From assembly GCA_945861145.1 (NCBI GenBank), contig CAMATL010000013.1:1-30378 (forward strand): a stretch of 30,378 nucleotides of DNA. Direction: 5' to 3'. Shown one piece after another: positions 6,687-29,613 of this stretch. The notes under the pieces are model-generated. The model saw only the letters and a program-made list of their open reading frames with translations, was not told the origin of the DNA and did no database searches. The first letter of the stretch is position 1; the number at the start of each line of letters is the position of its first letter. Both the position numbers and the translations under genes were made by a program. Origin of the DNA: a candidate division TM6 bacterium GW2011_GWF2_37_49 (GTDB taxonomy: Bacteria > Babelota > Babeliae > Babelales > RVW-14).

Positions 6687-6687
6687 T

Positions 6688-6724: not shown

Positions 6725-6744
6725 ATTACTAAAAGTGCTCACAC

Positions 6745-8433: not shown

Positions 8434-8460
8434 GTTGCAACTCCTTAATTACTTAACTAT

Positions 8461-8613: not shown

Positions 8614-8624
8614 ATAAAAAAACC

Positions 8625-9200: not shown

Positions 9201-9438
9201 GGCTCACTCCTCAGGGAAAAAGAACCAAATTTATTAACAATAATGACGTTAAGCTATCGAAAATACTAACCCCTCGATGCCTTCGACAAGCTCAGGACTG
9301 TCGGGATATTTAAATTAATCGGGGCGATCGGGGTTGATTTTTATTTTATTAGCTCTTCAACTCCGAGCATGGTGAGTGTCCACCTAAGCCTTGGCGCAGG
9401 CTGGATGTATCGAACCATAAAATTCAAACGACCACCGA

Positions 9439-9466
9439 ATTCTATCAGGTGCTGGACAAAAGTCAA
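9439..9466 (-). promoter_or_regulatory. Near-consensus sigma70 promoter on the minus strand (TTGACT, 16-bp spacer, TAGAAT) reading toward the NfeD-flotillin operon; implies a ~230-nt leader
   Basis: Read on the reverse complement: ttgacttttgtccagcacctgatagaat. Confidence 0.35.
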
Positions 9467-9674
9467 CATCCTTTTTTGCCCATATTGCGCAATACATGGC
9501 GCATATGCCGCAACAACAACTCATTTAATGCACAGGCAGCAGATAACAGGCTAAGAGGTGCAACAAATAATCGTAATCGCGCCTGCCCGCGGGCAAAATA
9601 AATATTAATCGCAGGTTCAACCTTGAAGTGCATTGCAAAATACCAAGGGGCGCACGCCACTATATTTGACTGCG

Positions 9675-10514
9675 CTACTCGATATCAAAATCAAAATAAG
9701 TATCAGGGAATGGCTCATTATTGAGCGTGTAGTGCCACCATTCTTGCTCGTAAGCGCGAAAGCCCTGTTTTTCCATTTTAGTGCGCAGGTAATTGCGTTG
9801 AGTGGCGCACTCATCAGCTACCTTAGGGCTACTATGGTGTGATGCTTGATCCAAAAGATCCCAGCTTGAGCCCATGTCTACAGTGCCGTCATCAAGAAAA
9901 GGCAACGTCTCACAGCCTTTTACTGAACGAAGCGCAAAGATTGGTGCTTTGAGCTTGCCATCCACTTTGATTATTGAAAGGTCGATCGTGCTGCCGCGTG
10001 TATGGCCAGATTTTTTAGCAACATAACCACGGTCAAAAACATTTCTTTTATCGATTTTTGGGTAGTATTTTGCTTTCATTGCTTGGTCGTTTAAATCTTC
10101 GCTCCAGCGCATAAAGTGATTAACTGCTTTTTGAGGGCGATAAGCATCGTACACAACGAGGCTATAGCCATTCTCTAAGAGCTCTTTTTGAACCTTGCTC
10201 AGTGCTTGCGCCGCCTGCTTGGTTATGACAATACGAGCTGCTTTGTAACCGTCAACCCTTGCGCCAACAAAGTTTTCCGTCGAAAAATAACGCACTGATG
10301 CTTGTATGGTTTTATCCTGCTCATCCAGGTACACAAAGCCTTCTGGGATTGAAAAGCATGTGGCAGCAAAAACAGCAACAAACGCTACTGAGAGCTCAAG
10401 GCCGCGTAAAAACCTAATAATCATAGGATAATCCTTTCTTGATTTGTGCTTACCCATCATCATAGCCATGTCCTTAACCCTTGTACAACAGGGCTTGATC
10501 AACAAACAACTCAT
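9675..10514 (-). CDS. ddpX: D-alanyl-D-alanine dipeptidase, peptidase family M15D (VanX/DdpX-like), with an N-terminal signal or anchor sequence
   Basis: LVVYDAYRPQKAV, the zinc-ligand region SGHTRGSTIDLS and EQEWWHYTL all match the DdpX/VanX family. The true start may be the internal MIIRFL (hydrophobic leader). Confidence 0.8.
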   Translation of the reverse strand: MSCLLIKPCCTRVKDMAMMMGKHKSRKDYPMIIRFLRGLELSVAFVAVFAATCFSIPEGFVYLDEQDKTIQASVRYFSTENFVGARVDGYKAARIVITKQAAQALSKVQKELLENGYSLVVYDAYRPQKAVNHFMRWSEDLNDQAMKAKYYPKIDKRNVFDRGYVAKKSGHTRGSTIDLSIIKVDGKLKAPIFALRSVKGCETLPFLDDGTVDMGSSWDLLDQASHHSSPKVADECATQRNYLRTKMEKQGFRAYEQEWWHYTLNNEPFPDTYFDFDIE

Positions 10515-13839: not shown

Positions 13840-15297
13840 TTGATCATGAAAACAGACTTAGGTTTTTCGTTCTTGCCGGTCACCTGCGACAGTGCAAAAA
13901 TAAATATCGGCTCTACATTCGTTGCATGCGATGGATCGCAGTTTCGCGGCATTGATTTTATACCACAAGCAATAAGAAATGGCGCTGCGCGGATCATTGC
14001 AGGCATACAATACACCCAAGAACTCGCAACTTTTGAACAACAATATCCACGTGTTATATTCTCATATACCTCAGACCCGCGCAAAGCGCTGGCCGAAGAA
14101 GCAGCCAAGGCGCACGGTTATCCAACAAAAAAGCTTCGCATTGTTGGTATCACAGGCACCAAAGGAAAAAGCACCATCACCCATCTCGTCGATCACATGC
14201 TGCGCACAGCAGGCCGCAAAACAGCACTGATCGGTGGTGTTGCAAATAAAATCTTAGATACGTCAATACCAAGCTCACTCACCACACCAAACAGTGATTT
14301 CTTACAAGCTTTTTTTGCTGCTTGCGTTGAAGAAGGTGTTGATACGGTAGTTATGGAAGTTTCATCCCATGCATTAAGTCTAGACCGCGTGCACAGCATT
14401 AAATTTGATGCGGTTGGTTTTACTAATCTGGCGCAAGATCATCTCGATTTTTATGGCACAATGGCAGCCTACTGCGACGCAAAACTATTACTTTTTAATC
14501 AACTTAAACCAACTGGCCATGCAATCATTAACCTTGATCATCCATGGGGGCAATATGTAGAAGAAGCCGCCAAAACGCAACTAAACCAGCAACAAATAAT
14601 CACGATCAGCAAGCAAAAACCAGCAACCGCCACGCTCGCTATTTTAGATAGCAGCCTTGCAGGCCTTGAGCTTTCAGTCACGAATTATTTACATGATAAC
14701 TCGCTGTATCTTACCAGTAGTTATCTTTTTGGCGCCCCCTATGCTTACAATATTGCCATGGCTGCACTTATTGGCCAGTCACTTGGCATTGCAGATGAAA
14801 TAATTACTCAAGCATTAACATCCTTCACTGGCACGCCAGGACGCTTACAACTCCATGTTTTAAAAAATGGTGCAAAAGCTTTTGTTGATTTCGCCCACAG
14901 CGGGCCTCCGATGGAAGCAGTCCTGCAGATGCTCAGGCCGCTCACCGACAATCTCATTGTATTGTTTGGCTGTGGCGGTGATCGCCCCAAGGAGCGACGC
15001 TTTTTAATGCCGCGAGCTGCGGCAGCCTTTGGTGATCATATTATTATTACAGAAGACAACCCGCGAACTGAAGACCGGTTACAAATTTTACGCGACATCG
15101 AAGCGAATATTCCGCCAGAAGCGCAACACAAAACACAAACGATCCAGGATCGCCGCCAAGCAATCGCAGCAGCCGTTAGCCTCGCCACAACACCGTCAAG
15201 CATTGTGGCCATCCTAGGCAAGGGTCATGAGCCATACCAAATCATTGGCACAACTCATCACCACTTCGATGATTTCGAAGAAATTAAAAATTTTTAA
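13840..15297 (+). CDS. murE: UDP-N-acetylmuramoyl-L-alanyl-D-glutamate--2,6-diaminopimelate ligase
   Basis: Mur-ligase P-loop GITGTKGKSTITHL and the MurE-specific DNPR motif (TEDNPRTED). Lies on its own, not inside a division-cell-wall (dcw) cluster. Confidence 0.85.
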   Translation: MIMKTDLGFSFLPVTCDSAKINIGSTFVACDGSQFRGIDFIPQAIRNGAARIIAGIQYTQELATFEQQYPRVIFSYTSDPRKALAEEAAKAHGYPTKKLRIVGITGTKGKSTITHLVDHMLRTAGRKTALIGGVANKILDTSIPSSLTTPNSDFLQAFFAACVEEGVDTVVMEVSSHALSLDRVHSIKFDAVGFTNLAQDHLDFYGTMAAYCDAKLLLFNQLKPTGHAIINLDHPWGQYVEEAAKTQLNQQQIITISKQKPATATLAILDSSLAGLELSVTNYLHDNSLYLTSSYLFGAPYAYNIAMAALIGQSLGIADEIITQALTSFTGTPGRLQLHVLKNGAKAFVDFAHSGPPMEAVLQMLRPLTDNLIVLFGCGGDRPKERRFLMPRAAAAFGDHIIITEDNPRTEDRLQILRDIEANIPPEAQHKTQTIQDRRQAIAAAVSLATTPSSIVAILGKGHEPYQIIGTTHHHFDDFEEIKNF

Positions 15298-15301
15298 GGA
15301 T

Positions 15302-16918
15302 TTATGACTCTAAAATTTTGAAACAACGTGCTTCATAATCCCAGATAACGATTACACGAGGAATATCAAATCTATCGTTATGCATGTCCCAATGAAGCAC
15401 CGTTGCATCGCCTTCTTCAAATAATTCTTTAGTGCCAAAATTTGTACCACGATCTTGAAACGAAAATTTTTGCGCCTTGTTAAGCCTCATCTCAAGAATG
15501 CCATCGCTCAATAATTTTGCTTGCATATGAATAGGCTCCTTATCTGGCATAAATTCAGTCCACACAAAAGCGCCCTTGTCATAATAAATTGGGGTTGTCT
15601 CTGGGAAACCATTCATGTAAAAGGCCTGTGCAACACTGGTACAAAACCAACCAAAAGGTAATCCTGCAAAGCAGATAGGTCCGGGTCTATCTTTCAATTG
15701 CACCACTAACTCTTTAACGGCAGTATTAATATTTGCAAGCACCTGCTCACGCTCATGTAGAAAAAATGGAAATACTGCGGCATTAAAAACGATAAGCCCC
15801 GCAAAGCACCAGGCTTTGGGTTTAAAAGGTAAATCATTTTCAAAAACAAGCAGAAGAATCGCTGCAACAAAAAAAAGTAGCGCTTCGTACATAAAGCGAG
15901 ACGTGTAAAATCGAATCACTGCCGGCCAAGCAAAGGCAATACTGCTCGCAAACAAAAACAGCACCATTGATTTTTTACGGCATTTAAAAAACAACCATAC
16001 TAAAAAAGCTACTACTAAAATTATCAACGATCCTTTACGTAAGCGGTTGCCACCACCTACAAATCCTAGATTGGTTAGATCAACAAGCCAAGTAACATAG
16101 TTCAAAAATTGATCTTTTAAGAAAGCAAAAAAAGCAAATCCAGGCTTAGTAACCCAGGTCAAATCGCCTTCTGATGATTTAAGAGGAAAGCGACTAACCC
16201 GCCAACCAAGATACCCAACAACAGGCACAAGCGCGCTCACGAATAGCCAAGCTTTATCTCGCACGCATCGCCAGTTCCAGATACACGCAAAGGCTACCCA
16301 TAACGGTAGTACCAGTATAGTTTCACGCGTTAAAAGAGAACAACAACTTAATACTATCATTGGCAGAAGTAGAAATTTATTACGAGATACTTCAAACCGA
16401 AGATACAACACAGCTATCAGCAGAGTGAAAAATAGTGCTAAAAGATGTTGCTGAGCCGTTGCCCACCCAAACCAATTCAACATAGATAAATGAAATAAAA
16501 AATACCCAGCACCCAGAGCGGCGACGCTTAATGAAAAATACCGCTTGAAAACAATCCACACGAGCACCGCATTTAAGCCATGCAGAAGGGATGAAACTAG
16601 TAAATAACCATAAGGAGAAAATCCAAAAAGAAGATATTGCACCCCATAAAAACCATAAAGTAATGGCCGGTACAATACAGCAAAAAATGACTGCTCCGGG
16701 GCTATATAATTAGAAGGCTGCATAAAAGTATGTAATCCAATCTCGGTAAAAAAATTACCTAACTCGCGCAAAGCTTCAATTTTACCATGCCACACAAGCC
16801 CAAAATCATCAACACCAAAACCCCATGAAAGATAGGGTAAGCCGAGAACAATTAATGCTATAGCCACTAAAAATATAGGTGCAATTTTTTGCATTTTTCT
16901 ACATTGAAGCAGTATCAT
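15302..16918 (-). CDS. GT-C fold membrane glycosyltransferase, PMT/ArnT-like (GT39/GT83-like), 538 aa
   Basis: About 11 predicted transmembrane helices and a first-loop acidic motif WGFGVDDFG, followed by a soluble C-terminal domain. AAAGGAG lies 5 nt upstream of the ATG. Paralogous to 29594..30378. Confidence 0.65.
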   Translation of the reverse strand: MILLQCRKMQKIAPIFLVAIALIVLGLPYLSWGFGVDDFGLVWHGKIEALRELGNFFTEIGLHTFMQPSNYIAPEQSFFAVLYRPLLYGFYGVQYLLFGFSPYGYLLVSSLLHGLNAVLVWIVFKRYFSLSVAALGAGYFLFHLSMLNWFGWATAQQHLLALFFTLLIAVLYLRFEVSRNKFLLLPMIVLSCCSLLTRETILVLPLWVAFACIWNWRCVRDKAWLFVSALVPVVGYLGWRVSRFPLKSSEGDLTWVTKPGFAFFAFLKDQFLNYVTWLVDLTNLGFVGGGNRLRKGSLIILVVAFLVWLFFKCRKKSMVLFLFASSIAFAWPAVIRFYTSRFMYEALLFFVAAILLLVFENDLPFKPKAWCFAGLIVFNAAVFPFFLHEREQVLANINTAVKELVVQLKDRPGPICFAGLPFGWFCTSVAQAFYMNGFPETTPIYYDKGAFVWTEFMPDKEPIHMQAKLLSDGILEMRLNKAQKFSFQDRGTNFGTKELFEEGDATVLHWDMHNDRFDIPRVIVIWDYEARCFKILES

Positions 16919-17039
16919 GCCACTCCTTTATTTAACAATAATTCGGCGCCATACCAACAGGATGCATTGCACCTTCTCCAAAAATTAGTATGCTCAGAAC
17001 GTTGCAAAGCACAAGGAAGAGTAATGAAGAGGAGAGGTA

Positions 17040-19130
17040 ATGAGAGCAATCAGTCATTGGTTTGGCACCAATAAATTACGTGCATTATTTATAAGCACGG
17101 TGTTCATTAAACTGTTTTTTATCATTTTGTTTTGTTCCGAATTTGTTCCAAAATTCTTCCTCCCCTTTGTTGACCACTTTGTTAATAACTGGGGAGATCC
17201 TTGGCAACATTTTTGGCGACAAGGCAACGGCATAGAATTTCCTTACAACCCATTGATGTTGTATATTTTGGCCATTTTTGTAAAATTCGGCCAATTACTA
17301 CATGCCCCTGTTTTTTTAACTGAAATATTGCTCAAATTACCCATTCTTGCCGCTGACTGTCTTCTTACTTATCTCATGCTGCGATCCTGTAGAGGTAAAG
17401 CGCTTGAAACACTCTTCTTTCTCTCTTTTTCACCAATATTAATCTACGCCTCGTTTATGCATACTCAACTGGATATCATTCCCACAGCATTACTGTTTTT
17501 AGCCATCTATCTGATTCGATTTCAGCCGTCACGTATCGCTGGTGGTATTTTTGGCAACACGCTTGTCGCTGGTAGTGTGTTTGGCGCCGCGCTTGCTACC
17601 AAGCTTCATGTTGCGGCTGCAGGTCCACTCCTAGCAATCTATCTTTGGAAAAATAAAGGCTGGCGCATCGGACTACTATTCACAACTATGGCCACAACCG
17701 TTTATGCCTTTTTTATAACACCTTTTTTATTCTCAGAAGGGTTTTATCGCATGGTACTTACCCATCCAAAGCAAATGATGGTATTTGATGTATTTGCTCA
17801 ACTGGGACAATTAAAAATACTCGTCCCTGTATTTTCTTTAATGGTTTTATATGGTCGTTTTTTGACCTATAAAAAAATCAACCTTGACCTACTCGAAAGC
17901 TTTTTAGCAATCACTTTTGCCACACTCGTATTTTTTATTATTCCTGCGCCAGCATGGTATGTGTGGATGCTACCATTTATTGCATTGCTTTTCATACGCA
18001 ATTACCAACAAAACAGCCTCTTAGTCTTTCTGTACCTTGCGCTCAATGTTAGTTATCTGATTTTTTTTGTTTTCTTTTATCGTGAAGCGGGCATGCAAGA
18101 TTTGCTGCTTTTCGGGCAATCACTTAACTTCAAAATCCACCATGAAAAATTAGCTAATCTTTCTTTTACCTTGCTCGAAAGTATCTTATTTCTTGTCATC
18201 TATTTTGTTTATAAAGCAGGCATCAAAAGTAATGAGCTCTACGCGCGCCAACAAAATTTGGTTATAGGCATCAGTGGAGATAGTGGCACTGGGAAGAGCA
18301 CGCTCATGAAACAATTTATCGAAATTTTTAACGTCAAGGCAACTCTTATTGAAGGTGATGGAGATCACCGATGGGAGCGAGGCGATACACATTGGCAAGA
18401 AATTACTCACCTCAATCCTAAAGCAAATTTTTTGCATCGGCAGGCAGAACACATACTGCTTTTAAAAAATCACCAACCCGCGTGGCGCACCAACTATAAT
18501 CACCACACTGGCAAATTTGATGCCCCGCAAAAAATAGAACCTACTGACTTTATTCTTCTCAGCGGCTTACACCCGCTCTACTTACCAAAGATGCGCAAAC
18601 TTATAGACGTTAAAATTTATCTTGATCCTCAAGAAAAGATCAAACGACACTGGAAAATTACACGTGATATGCGCGAACGCGGTCACAGCAAAGACCATAT
18701 CTTAGAACAAATGGACCGCCGCACAAATGACATTAAAAAATATATTGATCCTCAAAAAGAATTTGCTGACATCATAATTCATTATTTTACTACTGATGAC
18801 TTTGAAGTAGGCTTTACTCAAGCACAATTCGCAAAACAGCTCAAAATTACCTTTGATTCCAGTATTAAAATTGAGCCTCTCTTGCAAATACTTATTCAGG
18901 CCCAGGTCAATACAGAATGGAATTATGCTGATGATTTACGCACTCAGGAATTAATTTTAGATAAGCCTTTAGATGCTCAAATTTTATGCCAACTACACAC
19001 CGATTTATTACCAAATATTGAAGAGCTCTTAGCAAGCAAGCTTGAGTGGCTTGACGGATACGATGGATTTGTGCAATTTATTTGCTTAATGGTTGTTAGT
19101 GAAAAAATGAAGGAGCGTCATGCAAGCTAA
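17040..19130 (+). CDS. Fusion protein: N-terminal polytopic membrane domain (~420 aa, unknown family) + C-terminal phosphoribulokinase/uridine-kinase family P-loop kinase
   Basis: C-terminal domain carries IGISGDSGTGKSTL, YNHHTGKFD, LLSGLHPLY, DVKIYLD...WKITRDMRERGHS and YIDPQKEFADIII, which are strong PRK-family signatures. The N-terminal half is uniformly hydrophobic. Confidence 0.75.
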   Translation: MRAISHWFGTNKLRALFISTVFIKLFFIILFCSEFVPKFFLPFVDHFVNNWGDPWQHFWRQGNGIEFPYNPLMLYILAIFVKFGQLLHAPVFLTEILLKLPILAADCLLTYLMLRSCRGKALETLFFLSFSPILIYASFMHTQLDIIPTALLFLAIYLIRFQPSRIAGGIFGNTLVAGSVFGAALATKLHVAAAGPLLAIYLWKNKGWRIGLLFTTMATTVYAFFITPFLFSEGFYRMVLTHPKQMMVFDVFAQLGQLKILVPVFSLMVLYGRFLTYKKINLDLLESFLAITFATLVFFIIPAPAWYVWMLPFIALLFIRNYQQNSLLVFLYLALNVSYLIFFVFFYREAGMQDLLLFGQSLNFKIHHEKLANLSFTLLESILFLVIYFVYKAGIKSNELYARQQNLVIGISGDSGTGKSTLMKQFIEIFNVKATLIEGDGDHRWERGDTHWQEITHLNPKANFLHRQAEHILLLKNHQPAWRTNYNHHTGKFDAPQKIEPTDFILLSGLHPLYLPKMRKLIDVKIYLDPQEKIKRHWKITRDMRERGHSKDHILEQMDRRTNDIKKYIDPQKEFADIIIHYFTTDDFEVGFTQAQFAKQLKITFDSSIKIEPLLQILIQAQVNTEWNYADDLRTQELILDKPLDAQILCQLHTDLLPNIEELLASKLEWLDGYDGFVQFICLMVVSEKMKERHAS

Positions 19131-19830
19131 TCACAATCGACGCATTATTAAGGGCTTGCTTTTCGATCTTGATAACACATTGTATCATTATAATCCTGCT
19201 CATGAAGCTGGACTCAGTGCTGTTTTTAAAACACTCAGTCAACAAGTAACTCAATCTCCAGCAGAATTATCTACCGTTTACGAGCAGGCAAAGCAACAGG
19301 TTAAACACCGACTTCATAGTACCGCAGCTTCTCATCATCGACTACTATATCTTCAAGCTATGCTTGAACTGCTTGGGCTTTTCTCTCCCACCCTTACCCA
19401 AGATCTTTACAACCATTACTGGAATGCATTTTTTGCAGCCATGCAACCAATTACAGGGATGAGTGAAACCCTGCATAGATTAGCAAAAAGCTATAGTATC
19501 GGAATAGTAACTAATTTTGTTGCAGACATTCAGTATCGAAAACTTGAACAACTCGGTATTGCAAACCTCATAAGCCATCTCGTCACAAGCGAAGAAATAG
19601 GCTGCGAAAAACCTGATCCAAGAGTCTTTTTTGCCGCTTGTAAAAAAATGCAGCTACAAGCAGATGAGGTATGCATGATCGGTGACGATCTAGAGATTGA
19701 TATAATTCCTGCACAACATTTAGGCATGGAAACTTATTGGCTGGTCCCACAAACCAGTACTACAAAACAAGAGCATTCATTGTTTAAAACATGTTCGACC
19801 TTCTATGACATCGAAGAGAGATTACAATGA
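19120..19830 (+). CDS. HAD-superfamily hydrolase (subfamily IA-like phosphatase)
   Basis: Motif I FDLDNTLY, motif II IGIVTNF and motif IV GDDLEIDI. Overlaps the upstream gene by 11 bp. Confidence 0.8.
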   Translation: MQANHNRRIIKGLLFDLDNTLYHYNPAHEAGLSAVFKTLSQQVTQSPAELSTVYEQAKQQVKHRLHSTAASHHRLLYLQAMLELLGLFSPTLTQDLYNHYWNAFFAAMQPITGMSETLHRLAKSYSIGIVTNFVADIQYRKLEQLGIANLISHLVTSEEIGCEKPDPRVFFAACKKMQLQADEVCMIGDDLEIDIIPAQHLGMETYWLVPQTSTTKQEHSLFKTCSTFYDIEERLQ

Positions 19831-20924
19831 CAACAATCTTAGACCTTATTGAACTTTCAAAATGGGCCGGCCAACGCTTTGACCTCGTGCAAGCTGGCGG
19901 GGGTAACTCATCATTTAAAACTGATGATAACCAAATGTTTATTAAAGCATCTGGCATTAGTTTAAGCGAAGTAAGCACATCAAATGGTTTTGTTACCGTT
20001 GATTTAGTCCCCTTGCGCAAAGGGCTTACAAAGCTACACAAACAACAAGAAACCCTTGATAAAAAAGCGCTCGAAGCTGCTGCAGAAGAACTTCTAGCTA
20101 AAGTAAAAACAGCAACCAACGTCGCTCGCCCATCAATCGAGACCTTTTTACATGCTTATCTTGAGACCTATGCTATGCACACTCACGGCATTGTAGTTAA
20201 CACAATTGCTTGTCGTAAAAATTGGCGCGAAACTTTTGAGCAAATTTTCCCCGAGAGCCTCTGTGTTTCCTATAAAACACCAGGCATTGAGCTCGCGCTT
20301 GAACTCGACCTACAAGTCAGCGCCTACATCAAAGAAAAAGGCAAGAAACCAAGTATTATTTTTTTACAAAATCACGGGCTCATTGTCAGCGCACCAACAG
20401 CGGCTGAAGTTAAATTTTTGACCGAAGAAGTTACGATTAAACTCGAACAATTTCTTAATATCACCAACAATACGTACCGCTTAACATCAGTGATTTCGGA
20501 AAACATACACAACGTATTTGGCGCCAGCAAGGTTTCCTACCTTTCTAACGACGCAGGCCTACGCGAGCTAATTATTAATGCAAAGCCTTTATTTTTCCAA
20601 CGACCATTTACCCCTGACACACTCGTGTATTGCGGCGTGCGCCTGCTCGTCCTCAATGATTTTGACGATGCAGACACACTAACTAAATATAAAGAAAATT
20701 TCACAGAAATTCCTCGTGTTATTATTTGCCGCGATCTGATATTTTTCATTGCAGATTCAGTACGCAAAGCACGCGAGATCGAAGAAGTACTGAAATTTCA
20801 CCTTGCAGTACTTGTGATTAATGTCACCCAAAATATTCAACCACAAGACATTCAATTCTTGGAAGAAGAAGAGCTTAATTATTTAGCCAAATGGGATGCT
20901 GAAAAGTACCGTCAGGCAGTTTAA
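19827..20924 (+). CDS. Class II aldolase/adducin-family domain protein (ribulose-5-P 4-epimerase / MtnB-dehydratase-like N-terminal domain) + C-terminal domain of unknown function
   Basis: AGGGNSSFK (substrate-phosphate-binding GN-S motif), the HTHG metal-ligand pair and the NHGLIVSA motif. ATGA overlap with the HAD gene. Confidence 0.65.
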   Translation: MTTILDLIELSKWAGQRFDLVQAGGGNSSFKTDDNQMFIKASGISLSEVSTSNGFVTVDLVPLRKGLTKLHKQQETLDKKALEAAAEELLAKVKTATNVARPSIETFLHAYLETYAMHTHGIVVNTIACRKNWRETFEQIFPESLCVSYKTPGIELALELDLQVSAYIKEKGKKPSIIFLQNHGLIVSAPTAAEVKFLTEEVTIKLEQFLNITNNTYRLTSVISENIHNVFGASKVSYLSNDAGLRELIINAKPLFFQRPFTPDTLVYCGVRLLVLNDFDDADTLTKYKENFTEIPRVIICRDLIFFIADSVRKAREIEEVLKFHLAVLVINVTQNIQPQDIQFLEEEELNYLAKWDAEKYRQAV

Positions 20925-20926
20925 AT

Positions 20927-20969
20927 AAAAAGAGAGATCCCTGGCCCTTGCCAGGGATCTCTCTTTTTA
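20927..20969 (+). terminator. Strong rho-independent terminator, bidirectional in form (A-tract, 14-bp perfect stem, T-tract)
   Basis: aaaAGAGAGATCCCTGGcccttgCCAGGGATCTCTCTttttt. Confidence 0.85.
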
Positions 20970-20987
20970 AGTCGAAAGAAAACCCAC

Positions 20988-22697
20988 ATGCACATCATTA
21001 TCCCAATGTCTGGCGTAGGCGCACGATTTCAAGCCGCAGGATACAAAGACCCCAAGCCTCTTATCTTGGTAGATGGCAAACCAATTATTGAGCATGTGGT
21101 TAATCTTTTTCCAGGCGAAACAAAATTCACCTTCATCTGCAATGAAGAGCATTTACAAACCACCGCAATGCGTGAAATCTTACAACGCATTGCTCCCTTA
21201 AGCTCCATTGCAAGCATCCCTCCACACAAGTTAGGCCCCGTATTTGCAACACTGCAAATGCAAGATTTAATCGATGACCAAGAAGAAGTAATCGTTAATT
21301 ATTGCGATTTTGGCACCTACTGGGATTACCAAGATTTTTTAAGCCACACGCGCAATCGCGCCGCCGCCGGAGCTATTCCAGCCTATCGAGGTTTTCATCC
21401 CCACATGCTTGGTACCACTAACTACGCATTTATTAAAGATTCAAATCAATGGCTAGAAGCCATTAAAGAAAAAGAACCTTGGACCAATAATCGCCTGCAA
21501 GAATATGCCTCCAATGGCACCTATTATTTCGCACGCGGCAGCTACGTAAAAAAATATTTTGAACAGGCAATCAAGCGCAATTTAAGCATCCCCGGTGCGA
21601 CCGGTGCGAATGGCGAATTTTATGTAAGCCTTGTGTACAACCTCATGGTTGAAGACAAATTACCAGTCTCAATCTACGAAATTCAGCATATGCTGCAGTG
21701 GGGAACCCCGCAAGATTTACGCGAATACGAAGCCTGGTCTGGCTATTTTCGCCAGCTTGTGGAAAAACCAAGCATCTCTCAATCTGTTGAACAGCGGAGC
21801 GTTAACCTTATCCCGCTCGCAGGGCGCGGCAAACGATTTGCTGACGAAGGCTACACTACACCAAAGCCTTTAATTCCAGTCAGCGGTAAGCCCATGATTG
21901 TACAAGCAGCGGCAGCACTGCCACGAGCAGAACAGCAAATATTTGTGTGTTTACAAGATCATTTAAATACCGCCCCGCTTAAACAAGCACTTAAGCAGGC
22001 CTACCCTCATGCATCGGTGATTGGTATCAATGCCGTCACAGAAGGGCAAGCTTGTACGTGCGCCATTGGATTGAATAATGTTGCCCCTGAAGCACCTGTT
22101 ACTATTGGCGCTTGTGACAACAGCATGCTTTTCGATAGAAAAAAGTATGAGGCTTTGCGCGATCGCGCTGATGTCGATGCCATCATATGGACATTTAAAA
22201 ATCATCCTTCTGCAAAAACTAATCCACAAATGTACGGGTGGGTTATCACTGATGATCAAAATAAGGCCGTAGGCGTTTCAGTAAAAAAAGCAATCTCATC
22301 TACGCCTGAAAAAGACCATGCCATTGTTGGTGCTTTTTATTTTAAAAAAGCAGCTCATTTCACGGCAGGACTTGAATCACTCTATAAAAACAATATTCGC
22401 ATAAATAATGAATTTTATGTCGACAGCCTCTGCGGAGAGCTGATCAAACTCGGGCTCAATGTTTATGTCTTTGAAGTTGATTTTTATGTGTGCTGGGGAA
22501 TCCCAAACGATTTACGCACCTTCAATTACTGGCAAAGCTTTTTCCATAAGTGTTCATGGCACCCCTACTCAATCAGCAAGGATCATATGGTTGCAGCTGA
22601 GGCTCAACAAAAGCTCATTGAGGAAGCAACAACATTTGCACAATCATGTGACTCTTTTTATAGTTCGCAATCAAACGATTTAGCAAAAACGATTTAG
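20988..22697 (+). CDS. Protein with two tandem sugar-phosphate nucleotidyltransferase (NTP_transferase/GxGxR-type) domains
   Basis: Each half begins with the nucleotidyltransferase signature: IIPMSGVGARF...PKPLILVDGKPIIEHV and LIPLAGRGKRF...PKPLIPVSGKPMIVQA. Confidence 0.7.
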   Translation: MHIIIPMSGVGARFQAAGYKDPKPLILVDGKPIIEHVVNLFPGETKFTFICNEEHLQTTAMREILQRIAPLSSIASIPPHKLGPVFATLQMQDLIDDQEEVIVNYCDFGTYWDYQDFLSHTRNRAAAGAIPAYRGFHPHMLGTTNYAFIKDSNQWLEAIKEKEPWTNNRLQEYASNGTYYFARGSYVKKYFEQAIKRNLSIPGATGANGEFYVSLVYNLMVEDKLPVSIYEIQHMLQWGTPQDLREYEAWSGYFRQLVEKPSISQSVEQRSVNLIPLAGRGKRFADEGYTTPKPLIPVSGKPMIVQAAAALPRAEQQIFVCLQDHLNTAPLKQALKQAYPHASVIGINAVTEGQACTCAIGLNNVAPEAPVTIGACDNSMLFDRKKYEALRDRADVDAIIWTFKNHPSAKTNPQMYGWVITDDQNKAVGVSVKKAISSTPEKDHAIVGAFYFKKAAHFTAGLESLYKNNIRINNEFYVDSLCGELIKLGLNVYVFEVDFYVCWGIPNDLRTFNYWQSFFHKCSWHPYSISKDHMVAAEAQQKLIEEATTFAQSCDSFYSSQSNDLAKTI

Positions 22698-22756
22698 CCG
22701 CTACCAAGACAGCTTGAATATTTAAACCTACCTGCACTCAAAAGCCCTGGCAATTC

Positions 22757-22785
22757 TTGACAACAGCTATAAACCCGCGCTAAAT
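22757..22785 (+). promoter_or_regulatory. Sigma70-type promoter of cassette copy 1 (TTGACA, 17-bp spacer, CTAAAT); 48-nt leader conserved with copy 2
   Basis: ttgacaacagctataaacccgcgctaaat. Paralogous block at 25674..25702. Confidence 0.55.
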
Positions 22786-22833
22786 TTCGCCCAGTTAGTC
22801 ATTTATTGCTGATTCCTATTTGAAAGGGCTATC

Positions 22834-23199
22834 ATGGATTTAATTATGAGATGTAATAAGTGCAACAGAGAGGTTCATTTTGCTGAATTTATGGGGTATG
22901 CAACAGGATATTTGCTTGAAAAAATTGGTCCTATGTTATTAGAGGCGACCGTTAAGGCCCTTATTGCATGTCTTACAGCCACAGCAGAAAAATCCTCACC
23001 AAATGCACCTACAGAAATCACCTTACAAACCAGAGGGGTGGTAGATAATACAATGGCTGGTATAGCTCTTTACTTTAAAATTGCCTGCCCTGATTGCAAA
23101 CAATGCTGCTGGCAAGCAGCTTCTACACCTAACGTAGAAATTCAAAAAAAGGCCATACCAAAGAGTCCCCAAAAAAAAGAAGTCTCTACTTCAACTTAA
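22834..23199 (+). CDS. Small cytoplasmic CxxC...CPDC (zinc-ribbon-like) protein with Lys/Ser/Thr-rich C-terminal tail; family A, copy 1
   Basis: MDLIMRCNKCNREVHFAEFMGYA...IACPDCKQCCW...KKAIPKSPQKKEVSTST. Paralogous to 25751..26095. Confidence 0.6.
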   Translation: MDLIMRCNKCNREVHFAEFMGYATGYLLEKIGPMLLEATVKALIACLTATAEKSSPNAPTEITLQTRGVVDNTMAGIALYFKIACPDCKQCCWQAASTPNVEIQKKAIPKSPQKKEVSTST

Positions 23200-23237
23200 T
23201 TTGAAAATTAATTATAAATCGAAGAAAGGGGAGTGTA

Positions 23238-23759
23238 ATGAATGTTTATCAAATTATGTTTATTAGCATACTTGTAGTATCAACACCGCTGATTGCATGG
23301 GACAACAAGGATGTCAATCAAGAATTAGAAATTTCTTGCAATGCTGATTTAACTTCACTTCTCAATGAAAACATCTCCAAATTCACTGTCATGGCTGTTA
23401 AAGCTAACTCGGTGGTAGTTTTTTTTGATGAAAAATTCAATGGCAACCCAGAATTAATTTGTACAAACTGCAGCAGAAGACTTTCTTATGCTGAATTTTT
23501 TGGTGTTATTGGAGCCATGACACTACAAAAAGTGCTAACAAGTAGCGATAAGTTTGAAGTTGTCATCTCTTTTTTTGACTCATTTACTAAGTTACTTGAA
23601 GCAGAAAATTTGGCCGTAATTGCAGCTTTCATGCTGGAATCAATTAAAAAAAAAGATGATCTGAGGAGCTATCCATGCCCAGATTGCAAGAAAAGTAACT
23701 CATGGATTTATGCCCCATATGAATCAGAAGTCAACGCAAAAATCAAAGCCCAGGCATAA
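23238..23759 (+). CDS. Secreted CxxC...CPDC protein; family B, copy 1, distantly related to family A
   Basis: Signal peptide MNVYQIMFISILVVSTPLIA. Core CTNCSRRLSYAEFFG...YPCPDCKKSNSW. RBS aaaggggag. Paralogous to 26134..26670. Confidence 0.6.
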   Translation: MNVYQIMFISILVVSTPLIAWDNKDVNQELEISCNADLTSLLNENISKFTVMAVKANSVVVFFDEKFNGNPELICTNCSRRLSYAEFFGVIGAMTLQKVLTSSDKFEVVISFFDSFTKLLEAENLAVIAAFMLESIKKKDDLRSYPCPDCKKSNSWIYAPYESEVNAKIKAQA

Positions 23760-23787
23760 CTGCTAAAAAAATCTACCACTCACTTTG

Positions 23788-24023
23788 TTGAAGTTGATTT
23801 TTATGTGTGTTGGGGAATCCCAAACGATTTACGCACATTCAATTACTGGCAAAGCTTTTTCCATAAATGTTCATGGCACCCCTACTCAATCAACAAGGAT
23901 GATATGATTGCAGCTGAGGCTCAACAAAAGCTCATTGAGGAAGCAACAACATTTGCACAATCATGTGACTCTTTTTTTACTTCTCAGTTGAGTAAAAAAA
24001 AGGTGACTGAATTATGCAAATAA
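23788..24023 (+). pseudogene. Duplicated 3' fragment of the nucleotidyltransferase gene (~97% identity to 22471..22659). It has no ATG (the listed ORF 23805..24023 starts at a GTG) and preserves a different, probably ancestral, C-terminus overlapping the GNAT start
   Basis: 6 mismatches over about 190 bp against 22471..22659. Homology fades over the next ~13 bp in both copies. In-frame remnant reads ...VCWGIPNDLRTFNYWQSFFHKCSWHPYSI... Confidence 0.75.
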
Positions 24024-24514
24024 GATCACTAACTCAAAAAGATTGGTTAATTTGGAAGAAAATTCGATTAGAAGCTCTAAAAGATTCGCCCGAAAATTTT
24101 GGATCCGCTCATGAAGAAGAATCAAATTGGAAAGGTTCAGATTTTCGAAATAGCTTACAAAAAAACAATATCTTTGGAGCCTTCATTAACCATGAACTTA
24201 TAGCTTGCGCTGGATTTTATAAAATGAATTCACTCAAAACAAAACATCGAGGTGTTATTTGGGGGGTATATACACAGCCTGAACACAGATTGAAAGGCGC
24301 ATCCAACAGCTTAATTGAAGCTATTATTATTCATGCCAAAGAACATGTAATACAAATACATTTAACTTGTGTAACAACAAATCTTGGCGCAATTAAGCTT
24401 TATCAAAAACATGGTTTTTTAATTTATGGAACTGAACCTCGCTCGCTCAAAATTGATGATATATTTTTTGACGAACACTTGATGATTTTTGTATTTAACA
24501 AAGATTCGCAATAA
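24014..24514 (+). CDS. GNAT-family N-acetyltransferase
   Basis: Acetyl-CoA-binding motif HRLKGASNSLIEAII in a 166-aa protein. RBS aaggtga upstream. Confidence 0.75.
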   Translation: MQIRSLTQKDWLIWKKIRLEALKDSPENFGSAHEEESNWKGSDFRNSLQKNNIFGAFINHELIACAGFYKMNSLKTKHRGVIWGVYTQPEHRLKGASNSLIEAIIIHAKEHVIQIHLTCVTTNLGAIKLYQKHGFLIYGTEPRSLKIDDIFFDEHLMIFVFNKDSQ

Positions 24515-25750: not shown

Positions 25751-26095
25751 ATGGATTTACGAATACGATGTAATAATTGTGAGCGAGAAATGCACTTTTT
25801 TGAATTTATGGGGTATGCAGAAGTGTATTTGGTGACTGCTATTGGAGCAGTTTTAGCACCTTTTGCACTAAAAAAACTCGTTGATTATCTTGCAACACCA
25901 ATAACTACACCTCCAACAAAGGGGCTAATTGATATGCCAATGGCCACATTCGCTCGTCAATTTTTTATTAAATGCCCAGATTGTGGTGAATGTTTTTGGC
26001 AACCAGCTTCTGAACCTAAAACAACTACAATATTTCTGAAAAAAAAGGCCACACCAAAAAGTACCAAAAAGAAGGAAGTTACCACTTCAGTTTAA
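25751..26095 (+). CDS. Small cytoplasmic CxxC...CPDC protein with Lys/Ser/Thr-rich tail; family A, copy 2
   Basis: MDLRIRCNNCEREMHFFEFMGYA...IKCPDCGECFW...KKKATPKSTKKKEVTTSV. About 45% identical to 22834..23199. Confidence 0.6.
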   Translation: MDLRIRCNNCEREMHFFEFMGYAEVYLVTAIGAVLAPFALKKLVDYLATPITTPPTKGLIDMPMATFARQFFIKCPDCGECFWQPASEPKTTTIFLKKKATPKSTKKKEVTTSV

Positions 26096-26133: not shown

Positions 26134-26670
26134 ATGAAGCTCTTTAAAATCATATTCTTTATCTTGCTCATGATACCATCATCATCATCAGCAGGATCGG
26201 CTAAAAACACAACCTCCAAGAAACCGTTGGTTTATTCCGCAGAGAAAACACCACCCATCTTCCATAGCAACACCTTCAGCTATCTTGCTATGATTCTAAC
26301 AATGGCCCAAATTACAACTCCTTACATAGAAAAACACGGCGTCCACCCTAGATTAACATGCACAGGCTGTGACAAAATGCTTTCACACATGGAGTTTTTT
26401 ACTGAAGCACAAAGTACGATTTTACTTAAAATAATGTTAGGCACTGATGAAATCGAGATCTTTAAGTCTTTTATAAATAAATTTGCTGAATTACTCATAG
26501 CAGAAAATTACGATGCAATCGCAGCATTCATGATAGAATCACTTCAAAATAAAGATATTATCTCTCGGCCTTGCCCAAGCTGTAATAAAAATGCCTGGGT
26601 TTATAAGCCTGGCGATTTAAATCCAGGTACCAATACAAAAGACCATCCTATTCAACATACTGCCACATAA
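26134..26670 (+). CDS. Secreted CxxC...CPSC protein; family B, copy 2
   Basis: Signal peptide MKLFKIIFFILLMIPSSSSA. Core CTGCDKMLSHMEFF...AENYDAIAAFMIESL...RPCPSCNKNAW. About 45% identical to 23238..23759 over the core. Confidence 0.6.
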   Translation: MKLFKIIFFILLMIPSSSSAGSAKNTTSKKPLVYSAEKTPPIFHSNTFSYLAMILTMAQITTPYIEKHGVHPRLTCTGCDKMLSHMEFFTEAQSTILLKIMLGTDEIEIFKSFINKFAELLIAENYDAIAAFMIESLQNKDIISRPCPSCNKNAWVYKPGDLNPGTNTKDHPIQHTAT

Positions 26671-26676: not shown

Positions 26677-27396
26677 TTATCGCTCATTCTGCTGCGGCAA
26701 TTTTTTACGCAAGCTAGCCGAATAGCTCATCGTCCTCGCAATTAATTTCCAGCGAGCTTTTAAGCCTGAATTCCATGAAGATGAGCCGAATTGGCGAGGC
26801 CCAAATGAGACTTGAAAACGAATCAATTTAAGACCAAGCTTTTTTGCCATGTAACAGGCGTACAAATCAAGCGAAAAATCATGTGGCGGGTTTTTCCACT
26901 GCTCAAAAAAACTACGATGAAATATATTTGGCTGGGCATTTATATCCCAGAGAGGCGTCTGCAAATACAGTGTTTCAAACGCGCTCATACCCACGGTAAA
27001 AAACTGATCAAAAATAGGCCGCCCCGCGCGAGCGCCCTTCACAAATAATTTTTCAGATACTGAGCTTTTAGCGATAATGTCATACGCACGAACCACGTCT
27101 CTTGGATCTGCTTGCAGGTCTGCATGCGTCCAACCAAGCAGCTCTCCCGTTGCCACACGCAGCCCACTCAAAATTCCAAAACCGTAACCCTGATTTTTTT
27201 CAACGCGAGTAGTTTTTGCAAACTCGTAACGAGGAAGTAAAGCGGCAAGCACTGCGGCAGTCTCATCAAACGAACCATTATCTACAAGCATCACTTCAAT
27301 ATCTCGATCACCAATAACATCGGCAAAACGATCAAGTAAAAAGGGGATACTTTTTGATTCATTGTAACAAGGCACAATAATTGATAACTTCTTCAT
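26677..27396 (-). CDS. GT2-family glycosyltransferase (dolichyl/polyprenyl-phosphate sugar synthase-like), soluble form
   Basis: LSIIVPCYNE...VMLVDNGSFD...(DxD region) GWTHADLQADP, the N-terminal GT-A fold signatures. GGGAG RBS upstream. Confidence 0.75.
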   Translation of the reverse strand: MKKLSIIVPCYNESKSIPFLLDRFADVIGDRDIEVMLVDNGSFDETAAVLAALLPRYEFAKTTRVEKNQGYGFGILSGLRVATGELLGWTHADLQADPRDVVRAYDIIAKSSVSEKLFVKGARAGRPIFDQFFTVGMSAFETLYLQTPLWDINAQPNIFHRSFFEQWKNPPHDFSLDLYACYMAKKLGLKLIRFQVSFGPRQFGSSSWNSGLKARWKLIARTMSYSASLRKKLPQQNER

Positions 27397-27432: not shown

Positions 27433-28488
27433 ATGCACACAACGACTGTTAAAAAAACATTACTCAAAGCTTGGCTTACATTCTCAGATTTTTTCTACAA
27501 AACAGTTGAAGCGCTGCCTTCAACTGTTTTTTCGCTGGTAGCAACACTACCAATCCTTATTTTCTGGTTATTGATGGTGTATAAAAAACCGATTAACCAC
27601 TTGCCAGCAATTTTTTATCAAGATCAACTAATACAAACGGCTAGCTCGTGGTTCAACCTACCACAAGATCCTACCTCACTGCCAGCAAGTTTTTTGATTT
27701 TTGGGTTACACACAATCAACATCAGTCTTTTTCTATATCTAGCACGCCCCTACCTTTCCAAATTAATGTTGCTCTGGGCGTGCTGGTATATTGGCATCCA
27801 CCCCAGTCATCAATTATGGCTCGGCAAGCTTGAATATTTACCCTACCTGCTTGAATGCATGATGGTCTTGATTACAATCATTTCGATAAAAAAAACCTCC
27901 GCTACAAATGCAATACCACTCAAACGTTTTTTCATTATAGCTCTTATGTTGGGCCTCTGGTTACCCATCAATATCTGGTTTGGCGCTGCATGCGCCACGT
28001 TGGCTGCTGCTTATTTTTGGCCTCTACCGACAACGCAACTAACAATACTTATGAGCAGCTACGCAATTGCACAACTTATTACAATCGTGCAAGGCTTTAC
28101 TATCAATGCAACAGCAATTTTTTTAAACTTACGGCAGACCTTGGTAGCCCTTTTTGGCCTAGGCTGGATTCCAAGCTCTCAACAATGGCTACGTTACTGT
28201 TTTCTTATTTTTTGGGCAGCAAGCTTAATTGGTCTTTTCCTACATACAACTAAGCGTCGCCAAGCAGGACTACTCTTGCTAGCCATTACTGCATACCTAG
28301 TACCGCAAATTTTCATAAAAATGCATCCTGCGTATGTCTACATAGCACTGCCAGCATTCATTACCTCACTTGGTCTGCTTTATGAAAACACGGGCGAAGC
28401 TGATATGCGCAGCGTTATAAAAAGCCTTATCATCCCAATCTACGCCTCTTTTTTATTTAACGTAGTCATGATTTTATTTTGGGCGTAG
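27433..28488 (+). CDS. Polytopic integral membrane protein (351 aa), unknown family; candidate flippase or GT-C-type partner
   Basis: Hydrophobic throughout (about 9-10 helices). AAGGA upstream. Start codon is only 36 bp from the divergent GT2 start. Confidence 0.5.
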   Translation: MHTTTVKKTLLKAWLTFSDFFYKTVEALPSTVFSLVATLPILIFWLLMVYKKPINHLPAIFYQDQLIQTASSWFNLPQDPTSLPASFLIFGLHTINISLFLYLARPYLSKLMLLWACWYIGIHPSHQLWLGKLEYLPYLLECMMVLITIISIKKTSATNAIPLKRFFIIALMLGLWLPINIWFGAACATLAAAYFWPLPTTQLTILMSSYAIAQLITIVQGFTINATAIFLNLRQTLVALFGLGWIPSSQQWLRYCFLIFWAASLIGLFLHTTKRRQAGLLLLAITAYLVPQIFIKMHPAYVYIALPAFITSLGLLYENTGEADMRSVIKSLIIPIYASFLFNVVMILFWA

Positions 28489-28626: not shown

Positions 28627-29613
28627 ATGAAGACACCACTTCTTTCTGTGGTCATTCCCCTGCTTAATGAAGAAAAGAATCTGCTTCCTTTATACGGTGA
28701 GCTCTCAACAACCACCAAACAGTTGGAGCATTTTAAACATTACGAATTCATTTTTGTTAACGATGGTAGCTGCGACAATTCATTAGATGTTCTAAAAAAA
28801 CTCGCAACGGCTGATGACCGGGTTAAGATCATCTCATTTATAAGAAATTTTGGTCACGAAAATGCCACGTATGCCGGCATACATCATGCCAAAGGTGATG
28901 CGGTTGTTTTAATTGATGCGGACCGCCAAGACCCTGCGGATCTAATTATTGAATTTGAAAAACATTACATAGAAGGCTATGACATTGTTTTTGGTCAACG
29001 CACAAAACGCCTGAACGAATCTTGGTTAAAAAAATGCACTTCTACCCTTTTCTACCCACTCTTTAAAAAATTAACAAAAGTTGATATGCCCTCAAATACA
29101 GGTGATTTTTGCTTGCTAAGCCGTAAGGCAGTAACAACCTTCAAGCTCTTACCAGAAAACCAAGTATTTGTGCGCGGCCTTATTTATTGGTCAGGACTCC
29201 CCAAAAAAGCAGTCCCTTTCGTACGGCGTAGCCGTGCCAGCGGTACATCAAAATACAACTACACAAAACTTACAATCTTTGCCCTAGAAAATATTATTTC
29301 ATTTTCTACCGTTCCAATGTATGCACTTGTATTTGGATCTCTTGGCCTTATAGCTTTATGCAGTCTTGGTGGGCTCATCGCCTTAGTTATGAAAATACTG
29401 GGACTAGTTGTTATGACAGGGTGGACTTCTTTGATGTTGGCACTACTCTTTTTATTTGCCTGCAATTTTTTTGCACTGGGAATTTTAGGCATCTACATCA
29501 GCAAAATCTTCCAGGAATTAAAACAACGGCCAATGTTTGTGGTAAGTGAGCTCATCGGCATTGAAGCAAATACAACTGCCATAGGAGCGAATTATGCTTA
29601 CCTTAAAAAATAA
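28627..29613 (+). CDS. GT2-family polyprenyl-phosphate glycosyltransferase with two C-terminal TM helices (ArnC/GtrB/DPM1-like)
   Basis: LSVVIPLLNEE...FIFVNDGSCD...VLIDADRQDP, plus the C-terminal hydrophobic pair YALVFGSLGLIALCSLGGLIALV / TSLMLALLFLFACNFFALGILGIYI. Confidence 0.8.
   Translation: MKTPLLSVVIPLLNEEKNLLPLYGELSTTTKQLEHFKHYEFIFVNDGSCDNSLDVLKKLATADDRVKIISFIRNFGHENATYAGIHHAKGDAVVLIDADRQDPADLIIEFEKHYIEGYDIVFGQRTKRLNESWLKKCTSTLFYPLFKKLTKVDMPSNTGDFCLLSRKAVTTFKLLPENQVFVRGLIYWSGLPKKAVPFVRRSRASGTSKYNYTKLTIFALENIISFSTVPMYALVFGSLGLIALCSLGGLIALVMKILGLVVMTGWTSLMLALLFLFACNFFALGILGIYISKIFQELKQRPMFVVSELIGIEANTTAIGANYAYLKK

Follow-up and report, generated by a model that had tools for sequence, protein, structure and literature searches.

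A tandem nucleotidyltransferase with both catalytic residue sets intact: probable activating enzyme of a mobile envelope-glycosylation cassette

Introduction

A 30,378-nucleotide stretch from a candidate division TM6 bacterium GW2011_GWF2_37_49 (GenBank assembly GCA_945861145.1, contig CAMATL010000013.1, positions 1 to 30,378; hereafter the window) encodes a protein in which a sugar-phosphate nucleotidyltransferase (NTase) domain occurs twice in a single chain. What does a cell gain from two such domains in one polypeptide, are both of them enzymes, and which pathway do they serve? A sequence-only reading of this DNA had described the gene as an internal duplication and a pseudo-dimer, had allowed for two substrates or for one regulatory half, had joined it to an upstream PRK/HAD/aldolase operon, and had connected it with a downstream GNAT gene and hence with an N-acetylated product. 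In this study the protein, its relatives and their genomic surroundings were compared. We consider it likely that this is a single-chain tandem NTase, catalytically complete at both sites, which acts as the nucleotide-activation enzyme of a conserved and mobile envelope-glycosylation cassette, and that its two sites most likely differ in the ligands they bind.

Two nucleotidyltransferase domains in one polypeptide

The gene and its parts are as follows.

20988..22697, plus strand: tandem sugar-phosphate NTase gene, the whole open reading frame (ORF) including the stop codon, with an ATG start, 569 amino acids.
20988..21773, plus strand: N-terminal NTase domain, residues 1-262, with G9, G11, R13, K23, D107, K162 and E210 as catalytic-type residues.
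21801..22592, plus strand: C-terminal NTase domain, residues 272-535, with G279, G281, R283, K293, D377, K433 and E475 as catalytic-type residues.
22593..22697, plus strand: C-terminal tail of the NTase, residues 536-569, delimited from the family alignment and the predicted local distance difference test (pLDDT).

Alignment of residues 1-270 with residues 271-569 gave 27% identity over approximately 260 residues (BLASTP E=4e-33), and by this comparison the similarity between the two halves is far beyond chance. Each half starts with the pattern GxGxRF...PKPLI.V.GKP(I/M)I. The two tandem domains that the sequence-only reading had placed in this ORF are thus borne out, coordinates included, by the self-alignment and by the loops in both halves. 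The whole protein scored above the Pfam cutoffs for PF12804 (50.8 bits, cutoff 27) and PF00483 (49.4 bits, cutoff 21.2), and the N half alone also scored above that for PF00483 (30.3 bits); the C half alone is slightly under each cutoff (24.3 bits for PF12804 and 17.8 bits for PF00483). Profiles built from the N halves and from the C halves of the family both match GlmU and 4evw in the Protein Data Bank (PDB). All 22 matches of the protein to curated NCBIfam equivalogs were far under their cutoffs, among them GlmU (TIGR01173, 37.3 against 366.85), rmlA_long (41.5 against 320), MurU (38.3 against 250), galU (27.3 against 327), ispD (25.8 against 181) and HddC (15.3 against 300).

The alignment-based AlphaFold2 (AF2) model contained two domains with the Rossmann-like alpha/beta NTase fold (pLDDT 92.1, predicted template modelling score (pTM) 0.88). 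A Foldseek search of the PDB with this model gave 681 matches at E<=1e-3, and the top 50 listed were all sugar-1-phosphate NTases. The matches include 4evw, GalU, GlmU, RmlA and GMPPA/B and cover a single half (query-normalised TM-score (TMq) approximately 0.35); because each PDB match spans one half, the tandem arrangement is present in no solved structure. A Bodo saltans virus protein (A0A2H4UUJ1) superposes on both domains together, with a root-mean-square deviation of 1.6 Å, TMq 0.88 and 47% identity. Since this homologue was predicted independently, the joint superposition means that the inter-domain geometry is reproducible, and the pTM of 0.88 and the 1.6 Å superposition together indicate that the predicted geometry is fixed.

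Two stretches of the window protein depart from the family. The tail exceeds the family consensus by approximately 20 residues, its end (residues 560-569) is predicted to be disordered (pLDDT <50), and it overlaps a repeated segment of the window (22471-22669). In the N half, residues 201-206 (PGATGA, window 21588-21605) are an insertion that is missing from nearly all of the other 164 aligned members; they are also the lowest-confidence stretch within the N domain (block pLDDT 70).

Amino acids conserved in the two halves

A total of 165 family members were used for the analysis of conservation, and 161 N halves were aligned with 161 C halves. The catalytic set was checked at seven positions (GGRKDKE, that is, two glycines of the loop, arginine, lysine, aspartic acid, lysine and glutamic acid), and all seven are present in both halves of the window protein. 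The loop reads G9-x-G11-x-R13...K23 in the N half and G279-x-G281-x-R283...K293 in the C half; both align with G14/G16/R18/K25 of GlmU and are at least 95% conserved. Invariant D107/D377 and K162/K433 are in register with the 'YGD' and 'HK' motifs of GlmU, and both half-profiles align with GlmU at the glycine loop, the PK lysine, the metal aspartic acid, the E/H-K lysine and GE(Y/F)Y, which is GEYY in the N half. The comparison of active-site loops with GlmU, suggested earlier as a check, therefore placed both halves in register. The same reading had named a degenerate second half, lacking the catalytic loop residues, as the outcome that would overturn it. The window protein is not of this kind: G279, G281, R283, K293, D377, K433 and E475 are all there, each at least 95% conserved in the family, and the internal duplication stands with neither half degenerate. 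From these intact residues both halves apparently have NTase activity, and, to judge from the alignments, the two domains are paralogues of the GlmU/RmlA fold that go back to an ancient internal duplication and are kept in a fixed N-C order.

Comparison of the halves revealed 24 positions that are invariant and carry the same residue in both, including G9/G279, G11/G281, R13/R283, K23/K293, D107/D377, K162/K433, E210/E475 and D243/D508; as read from the alignment, these 24 are the catalytic core. Another 19 positions are invariant in each half yet differ in residue between the halves, including K81/T351, P84/Q354, V85/A355, F108/N378, E161/V432, R169/P440, E172/D443 and S214/D479. The half-specific invariants include the base-recognition loop and residues beside the metal aspartic acid and the phosphate-binding lysine. 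This pattern fits two different ligands, and it suggests that both sites are competent and that each has a ligand specificity of its own, frozen separately. The ligands could be two substrates or two nucleotides, or a substrate and an effector.

The two halves are constrained to different degrees. Near-invariant positions number 77 in the N half and 37 in the C half, and invariants confined to one half number 64 and 18, respectively; the N half is thus the more constrained. Among 118 diverse cluster representatives, the catalytic set was exact in the N half of 90, with 22 more bearing a G11S replacement, and exact in the C half of 108. The G11S variant of the N-half loop is also borne by the cyanophage NTases. 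In rare lineages the set is lost from one half, which may be either half and is never both: the C half is degenerate in L041, L043, L046, P0271, P0314 and P0372, and the N half is lost in P0279, P0296 and P0344.

The first alternative to two catalytic sites of different specificity is a division of labour in which one half, probably the N half, makes the nucleoside diphosphate (NDP)-sugar while the other binds product or effector and regulates, as a covalent analogue of the GMPPA/GMPPB, GalF/GalU or AGPase-subunit pairs. The stronger constraint on the N half argues for it. So do the loci L041, L043 and L046, where the C glycine loop is destroyed and the N half is intact (N-half identity to the window 61-62% in L041 and L046, and 57% in L043), and the presence of the GMPPA/GMPPB complex among the structural neighbours. 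Regulatory NTase paralogues that are known have altered catalytic residues, as in the catalytic loop of GMPPA, GalF and the AGPase large subunit. The C half here is unlike them in the conservation of its catalytic positions across the family, and the window protein has the full GGRKDKE set in both halves; moreover, the N half too has been lost, in other lineages. We regard a regulatory half as unlikely, while noting that the sequence pattern may be compatible both with two reactions and with catalysis plus regulation.

A second alternative, which we judge rather improbable, is a covalent homodimer in which one reaction, with identical substrates, takes place in both halves; the fusion would then have fixed what is a non-covalent dimer in single-domain relatives such as 4evw. 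The core catalytic residues common to both halves and the high pTM of the model are in agreement with it, and the decay of either half but never of both is what redundancy predicts. However, the halves are only 27% identical, compared with approximately 60% for orthologues across phyla, each half has its own fixed residue at the 19 aligned positions, and the N-C order is invariable. Two sites of different specificity remain our preferred reading of the conserved residues.

Distribution and domain architecture of the family

A word-indexed sequence search found more than 3,700 relatives of the NTase. The best 120 of these are all approximately 541-569 amino acids long, 58-98% identical and generically named, and come from Bacteroidota, Paenibacillus, Campylobacterota, Babeliales and other groups; among the matches listed, the nearest named relatives are from Dependentiae/Babeliales. 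An exhaustive search of 1.84 billion representatives gave 491 clusters at 50% identity (E<=1e-30). Neither Pfam nor NCBIfam has a model dedicated to the tandem family, and full-text literature searches found no publication on the protein or on the cassette described below.

Among the best 150 representatives 128 have the plain N-C architecture. Fused forms comprise N-C-GT2 (five clusters), N-C-c3 or c3-N-C (four clusters, c3 being a soluble protein family of the cassette), N-C-HAD (one) and aldolase-N-C (one, P0339). Other architectures include N-C-methyltransferase and a few single halves, one of which is joined to a domain of the inositol-monophosphatase family. The order of the N and C domains never varied among the architectures examined.

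Full-length relatives of 42-47% identity occur on an Escherichia coli IncR plasmid, on Hirschia and Azospirillum plasmids and in the Synechococcus phages S-SM2 and Bellamy; of 5,426 complete genomes of E. coli, only 2 have the IncR plasmid version. The family is horizontally spread over many bacterial phyla, plasmids, cyanophages and a giant virus. On the E. coli plasmid (NZ_CP145712.1, locus L058, 6022-14984) the entire cassette, with WP_273683682.1 as its NTase, is carried by a 33-kb IncR replicon from a human stool isolate; an IS26 transposase lies approximately 1.6 kb downstream of the cassette, and an identical stretch occurs on a plasmid from a bullfrog isolate. In the cyanomyoviruses (phage Bellamy, and phage S-SM2 at L059, 154113-155681) the NTase adjoins a different class II aldolase within a heptose/LPS-like sugar gene cluster. 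The cyanophage gene SSM2_205 was tried as an orthologue of the cassette aldolase and rejected (hhalign probability 0.1%). The Bodo saltans virus protein, 716 amino acids long and named 'glycosyltransferase/phospholipase', consists of the tandem NTase and a 'phospholipase' domain.

Genes of the cassette

The partners of the NTase in the window are as follows.

17040..19130, plus strand: GT-C-fold membrane glycosyltransferase domain (residues ~1-400) fused to a P-loop kinase of the PRK/uridine-kinase family (residues ~404-590), assigned by Pfam and by AF2/Foldseek.
19120..19830, plus strand: HAD-family phosphatase (HAD_2, 2.1e-26).
19827..20924, plus strand: class II aldolase-like protein with a C-terminal extension, 365 amino acids (PF00596, 7.4e-16).
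26677..27396, minus strand: GT2 glycosyltransferase, 239 amino acids (PF00535, 2.2e-18), displaced and inverted in the window.

A total of 55 related genome loci were surveyed, upstream counts being taken where at least 4.5 kb of flank was available (38 loci) and downstream counts where at least 2.5 kb was available (43 loci). The canonical order is kinase fusion, HAD, aldolase-like, tandem NTase, (GtrA), GT2, c3. Upstream, the kinase fusion was found in 32 of 38 loci, HAD in 30 and the aldolase-like gene in 33; downstream, GT2 was found in 37 of 43 loci, c3 in 35 and GtrA (component c6, PF04138) in 22. The E. coli and Hirschia plasmids have the same parts, GtrA among them, in permuted order, and the cassette is located in surface-glycan gene clusters. 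In the window, the kinase fusion overlaps HAD by 11 nucleotides, HAD overlaps the aldolase-like gene by 4 nucleotides, and a gap of 63 nucleotides separates the latter from the NTase. The link to the upstream operon, as proposed from the window alone, is therefore upheld by gene order that recurs in 30-33 of 38 loci and by the aldolase-NTase and NTase-HAD fusions. The natural fusions with GT2, c3, HAD and the aldolase-like protein support the place of the NTase in the cassette.

Two gammaproteobacterial loci, L041 (10001-13070) and L046 (2880-5924), have a mini-operon instead, in which a tandem NTase with a destroyed C glycine loop is followed by a HAD gene and then by a stand-alone NTase of 245 amino acids, without kinase, aldolase or GT2; that of L046 adjoins a TagF-type CDP-alcohol phosphotransferase. 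L056 likewise has an additional stand-alone NTase, and L043 keeps the usual cassette.

Analysis of the kinase domain gave a match to PF00485 at 1.6e-40. Its nearest curated family is the phosphoribulokinase subfamily NF005655 (206.4 bits, cutoff 236), the uridine kinase model being more distant (80 bits, cutoff 220); by these scores PRK is the nearest family of the partner kinase, which is not itself a member. The N-terminal domain had no Pfam match and no PDB match by sequence. Its 400 amino acids were modelled at pLDDT 92.4, and the best Foldseek match was GPI-MT-I with Dol-P-Man (E=7e-5, TM 0.59), with ArnT, ALG3, ALG6 and PimE among further matches. As modelled, this domain is a GT-C fold, in agreement with the JGI label 'Gpi18-like mannosyltransferase' on some relatives. 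The fusion of GT-C and kinase is conserved across phyla, the best 120 matches listed being mostly approximately 660-750 amino acids long, and databases label it simply 'uridine kinase' or 'phosphoribulokinase'.

The nearest NCBIfam model to the HAD protein is ribulose-1,5-bisphosphate 5-phosphatase (166 bits, cutoff 330). In the aldolase-like protein H109, H118, H120, H183 and E105 are invariant, so that the His/Glu pattern of the metal site is kept; its best PDB match by sequence is the uncharacterised 3m4r (4.6e-27), followed by FucA at approximately 1e-6. The gene found directly downstream of the NTase is usually GT2, whose orthologues, of 50-76% identity, adjoin the NTase in 45 loci.

Component c3 (7206-7790 in L002 and in 34 other loci; 8785-9390 in L058) is a soluble family of approximately 195 amino acids with 30 invariant residues, including H6, R7, N9, E24, D26, R28 and H38 in an H-R-N...E-x-D...H-D pattern. 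No match to c3 was found in Pfam, with one member or with all 35, in NCBIfam, or in a PDB profile search. An assignment to the GDPD/PI-PLC families from the motif read by eye was set aside after these null results; the RefSeq product name (PI-PLC/GDPD-family) alone agrees with it.

Proposed pathway and its alternatives

The conserved partners suggest a route in five steps. The PRK-like kinase, the HAD phosphatase and the class II aldolase-family enzyme would first make an unusual sugar phosphate, possibly derived from a pentose or pentulose, in a logic like that of the ADP/GDP-heptose route (kinase, HAD phosphatase, NTase). The tandem NTase would then condense the sugar phosphate with a nucleoside triphosphate to give an NDP-sugar, and GT2 would load the sugar onto polyprenyl phosphate. 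The lipid-linked sugar would be flipped across the membrane, by GtrA where this is present, and the GT-C domain would finally transfer the sugar to an envelope acceptor outside the membrane. The end result is probably the decoration of the cell envelope with an unusual sugar. The leaning of the three upstream enzymes towards ribulose phosphates is a lead only as to the identity of that sugar. A more specific version, which we offer as a tentative proposal and hold to be possible rather than likely, makes the protein a dual-specificity activator: it would perform two different nucleotidyl transfers that feed an undescribed polyprenyl-phosphate-linked pentose or pentulose, formed from a ribulose-phosphate-like precursor by the PRK-like kinase, the HAD 5-phosphatase-like enzyme and the aldolase-family enzyme, and attached to the envelope by GT-C.

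Several results weigh against an activating enzyme of two specificities within such a cassette. GtrA and c3 were not found in the window (for GtrA, by tblastn and a sensitive HMM scan), and the window GT2 is parted from the NTase by approximately 4 kb of DNA that has no counterpart in the 55 related loci. Literature and database searches found no characterised member of the family. Three loci (L014, L022, L028) hold aldolase, NTase and GT2 without kinase and HAD, so that the pathway may not be strictly linear. Because the kinase and the HAD protein both score under the cutoffs of their nearest curated families, their substrate assignments are guesses. GT2 shows weak similarity to ArnC, PpgS and Dol-P hexose transferase, confined to the generic N-terminal region, and the lipid acceptor is proposed from the GtrA and GT-C context. 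The loss of the catalytic set from either half in rare lineages means that, in some contexts, either site can be dispensed with on its own.

The difference in specificity residues between the sites could also reflect two nucleotidyl transfers in succession, through which a phosphate is moved. Site 1 would activate a ketose-1-phosphate supplied by the PRK-like kinase, HAD and aldolase-like enzymes, c3 would cyclise the product to a 1,2-cyclic phosphate, this would open to the anomeric 2-phosphate, and site 2 would make the NDP-ketose donor for GT2. Such a scheme would account for the fusion of c3 at either end of the NTase in four clusters and in the giant virus, and the families to which the kinase, HAD and aldolase come nearest act, in all three cases, on ribulose phosphates; PI-PLC chemistry yields 1,2-cyclic phosphates. 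It is, however, entirely inferential: the window and L001 have both sites intact without c3, and the PLC/GDPD label of c3 rests on RefSeq naming and the motif read by eye. We think it quite improbable, and nucleotide activation of an envelope sugar at two sites of different ligand specificity remains the preferred reading.

The protein is a known kind of enzyme in a new architecture, set in a probably new sugar-activation pathway. The range of sugars that a microbe can display is set by its nucleotide-sugar synthesis. Once the product of this family is identified, an activated sugar and an envelope modification that are both new would probably come to light, and such a modification could affect recognition between phage and host. 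If the dual-specificity proposal is true, it would constitute a new sugar-activation route on a cassette that moves among bacterial phyla, plasmids, cyanophages and giant viruses. The copy on the E. coli IncR plasmid provides a tractable experimental entry point.

DNA specific to the window

The stretch of approximately 4 kb between NTase and GT2 contains two paralogous pairs of small cysteine-rich ORFs, a GNAT gene, an APH-family kinase and one copy of a 199-nucleotide repeat, the other copy being at the end of the NTase gene.

22471..22669, strand not assigned: 199-nucleotide direct repeat, copy 1, at the 3' end of the NTase gene (repeat search, family D1).
23788..23986, strand not assigned: direct repeat, copy 2, 95% identical (repeat search, family D1).

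Copy 2 encodes a 72-amino-acid fragment (ORF 23805-24023) that matches NTase residues ~497-565, and the HMM of the C half matches the frame 23760-24020 at E=7e-24. The two copies bracket the first approximately 1.3 kb of the window-specific stretch and end just before the GNAT gene, whose start is overlapped by ORF 23805-24023. The repeat has the look of a remnant left by an insertion or a duplication.

The GNAT gene (24014-24514) lies 1.3 kb downstream of the NTase on the same strand, and GlmU is among the nearest characterised structural relatives of the halves, but a split GlmU-like system in which NTase and GNAT together make an N-acetylated NDP-sugar is hardly credible, as no GNAT counterpart occurs in the 55 related loci, the gene sits within window-specific DNA right after the second repeat copy, NTase and GT2 are adjacent in L001, and the GlmU model gave 37 bits against a cutoff of 367. 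The GNAT link and the N-acetylated product of the sequence-only reading are accordingly unsupported, because the gene order NTase-GNAT was found in the window only.

The cysteine-rich two-gene module occurs at 22834-23199 with 23238-23759 and again at 25751-26095 with 26134-26670. The proteins carry CxxC...CPxC motifs, the larger of each pair has a signal-peptide-like N-terminus, and the paralogues are 47% and 33% identical; the DNA flanking the modules is likewise repeated (families D2-D4). These ORFs matched no Pfam family and had no counterpart among the 55 loci, and PHROGs gave one weak partial match for the 114-amino-acid ORF (phrog_4875, a family of unknown function, E=0.0034). A scan of 16800-24100 for promoters and terminators gave counts no higher than those in shuffled controls.

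In the nearest related locus (L001, 82% identity), in which NTase and GT2 are adjacent, approximately 7 kb with seven ORFs lies between the aldolase-like gene and the NTase (2968-10001), and the DNA after the cassette (14495-21580) encodes five membrane proteins that are PMT_2-like paralogues. The window has one counterpart of the latter, upstream of the cassette (15302-16918, minus strand, PMT_2 E=0.0011). The window also encodes a polytopic membrane protein of 351 amino acids without family match (27433-28488; 63% identical in L001) and a GT2 of 328 amino acids with a hydrophobic C-terminal region (28627-29613; 80% identical in L001). The products of these two genes are conserved with L001 only, and the glycosylation locus may have gained them in this lineage specifically.

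Comparison with known systems

Each half of the tandem protein resembles NTases of the GlmU/RmlA/GalU type in fold, in the G-x-G-x-R...PK loop, in the metal aspartic acid and phosphate lysine, and in GE(Y/F)Y. The tandem protein differs in having two such domains per chain, and in W-G-T-P where W-x-D-x-G-T is usual. Unlike GlmU, it has no left-handed beta-helix (LbetaH) acetyltransferase domain, its second half being an NTase again, and it falls below the GlmU equivalog cutoff. The nearest solved relative of both halves is 4evw, a 'nucleoside-diphosphate-sugar pyrophosphorylase' of Vibrio cholerae RC9 from structural genomics (N profile 5.5e-14, C profile 1e-15, Foldseek 7e-16, target-normalised TM-score 0.77), which has the start 'IPMAG..SRF..GY..PK' in common with them; it differs in being a single domain of 255 amino acids with approximately 22% identity to the tandem halves. 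A full-text literature search found no paper on its function.

The pairs GMPPB/GMPPA, GalU/GalF and AGPase small/large subunit likewise consist of two diverged NTase paralogues that act as a unit, one being more constrained. Here a single chain contains both, and approximately 92% of clusters have the full catalytic set in the half that is less constrained.

Gtr three-component systems (GtrA flippase, GtrB GT2 and a GT-C transferase) share with the cassette a GtrA, present in 22 of 43 loci and not found in the window, a small GT2, and a GT-C domain, here a predicted fold. The cassette differs in having its own supply module for sugar phosphate and NTase and in the fusion of GT-C to a cytosolic PRK-like kinase, and the C-terminal transmembrane helices of GtrB are missing from the cassette GT2. 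The nearest published system is a three-component system for pentofuranose with a phosphoribosyl pyrophosphate (PRPP)-dependent synthase, a MATE flippase and GT136, without an NTase (Kelly et al. 2024, PMC11127046); it is PRPP-based, unlike the NTase-supplied cassette.

The nucleotide-heptose pathway (HldE/HddA, GmhB, HldC/HddC) also has a kinase, a HAD phosphatase and an NTase in one operon. Compared with it, the NTase of the cassette is far from the HddC model (15 bits, cutoff 300) and tandem, the cassette kinase comes instead from the PRK/uridine kinase P-loop family, and a class II aldolase-like enzyme stands in place of the SIS isomerase.

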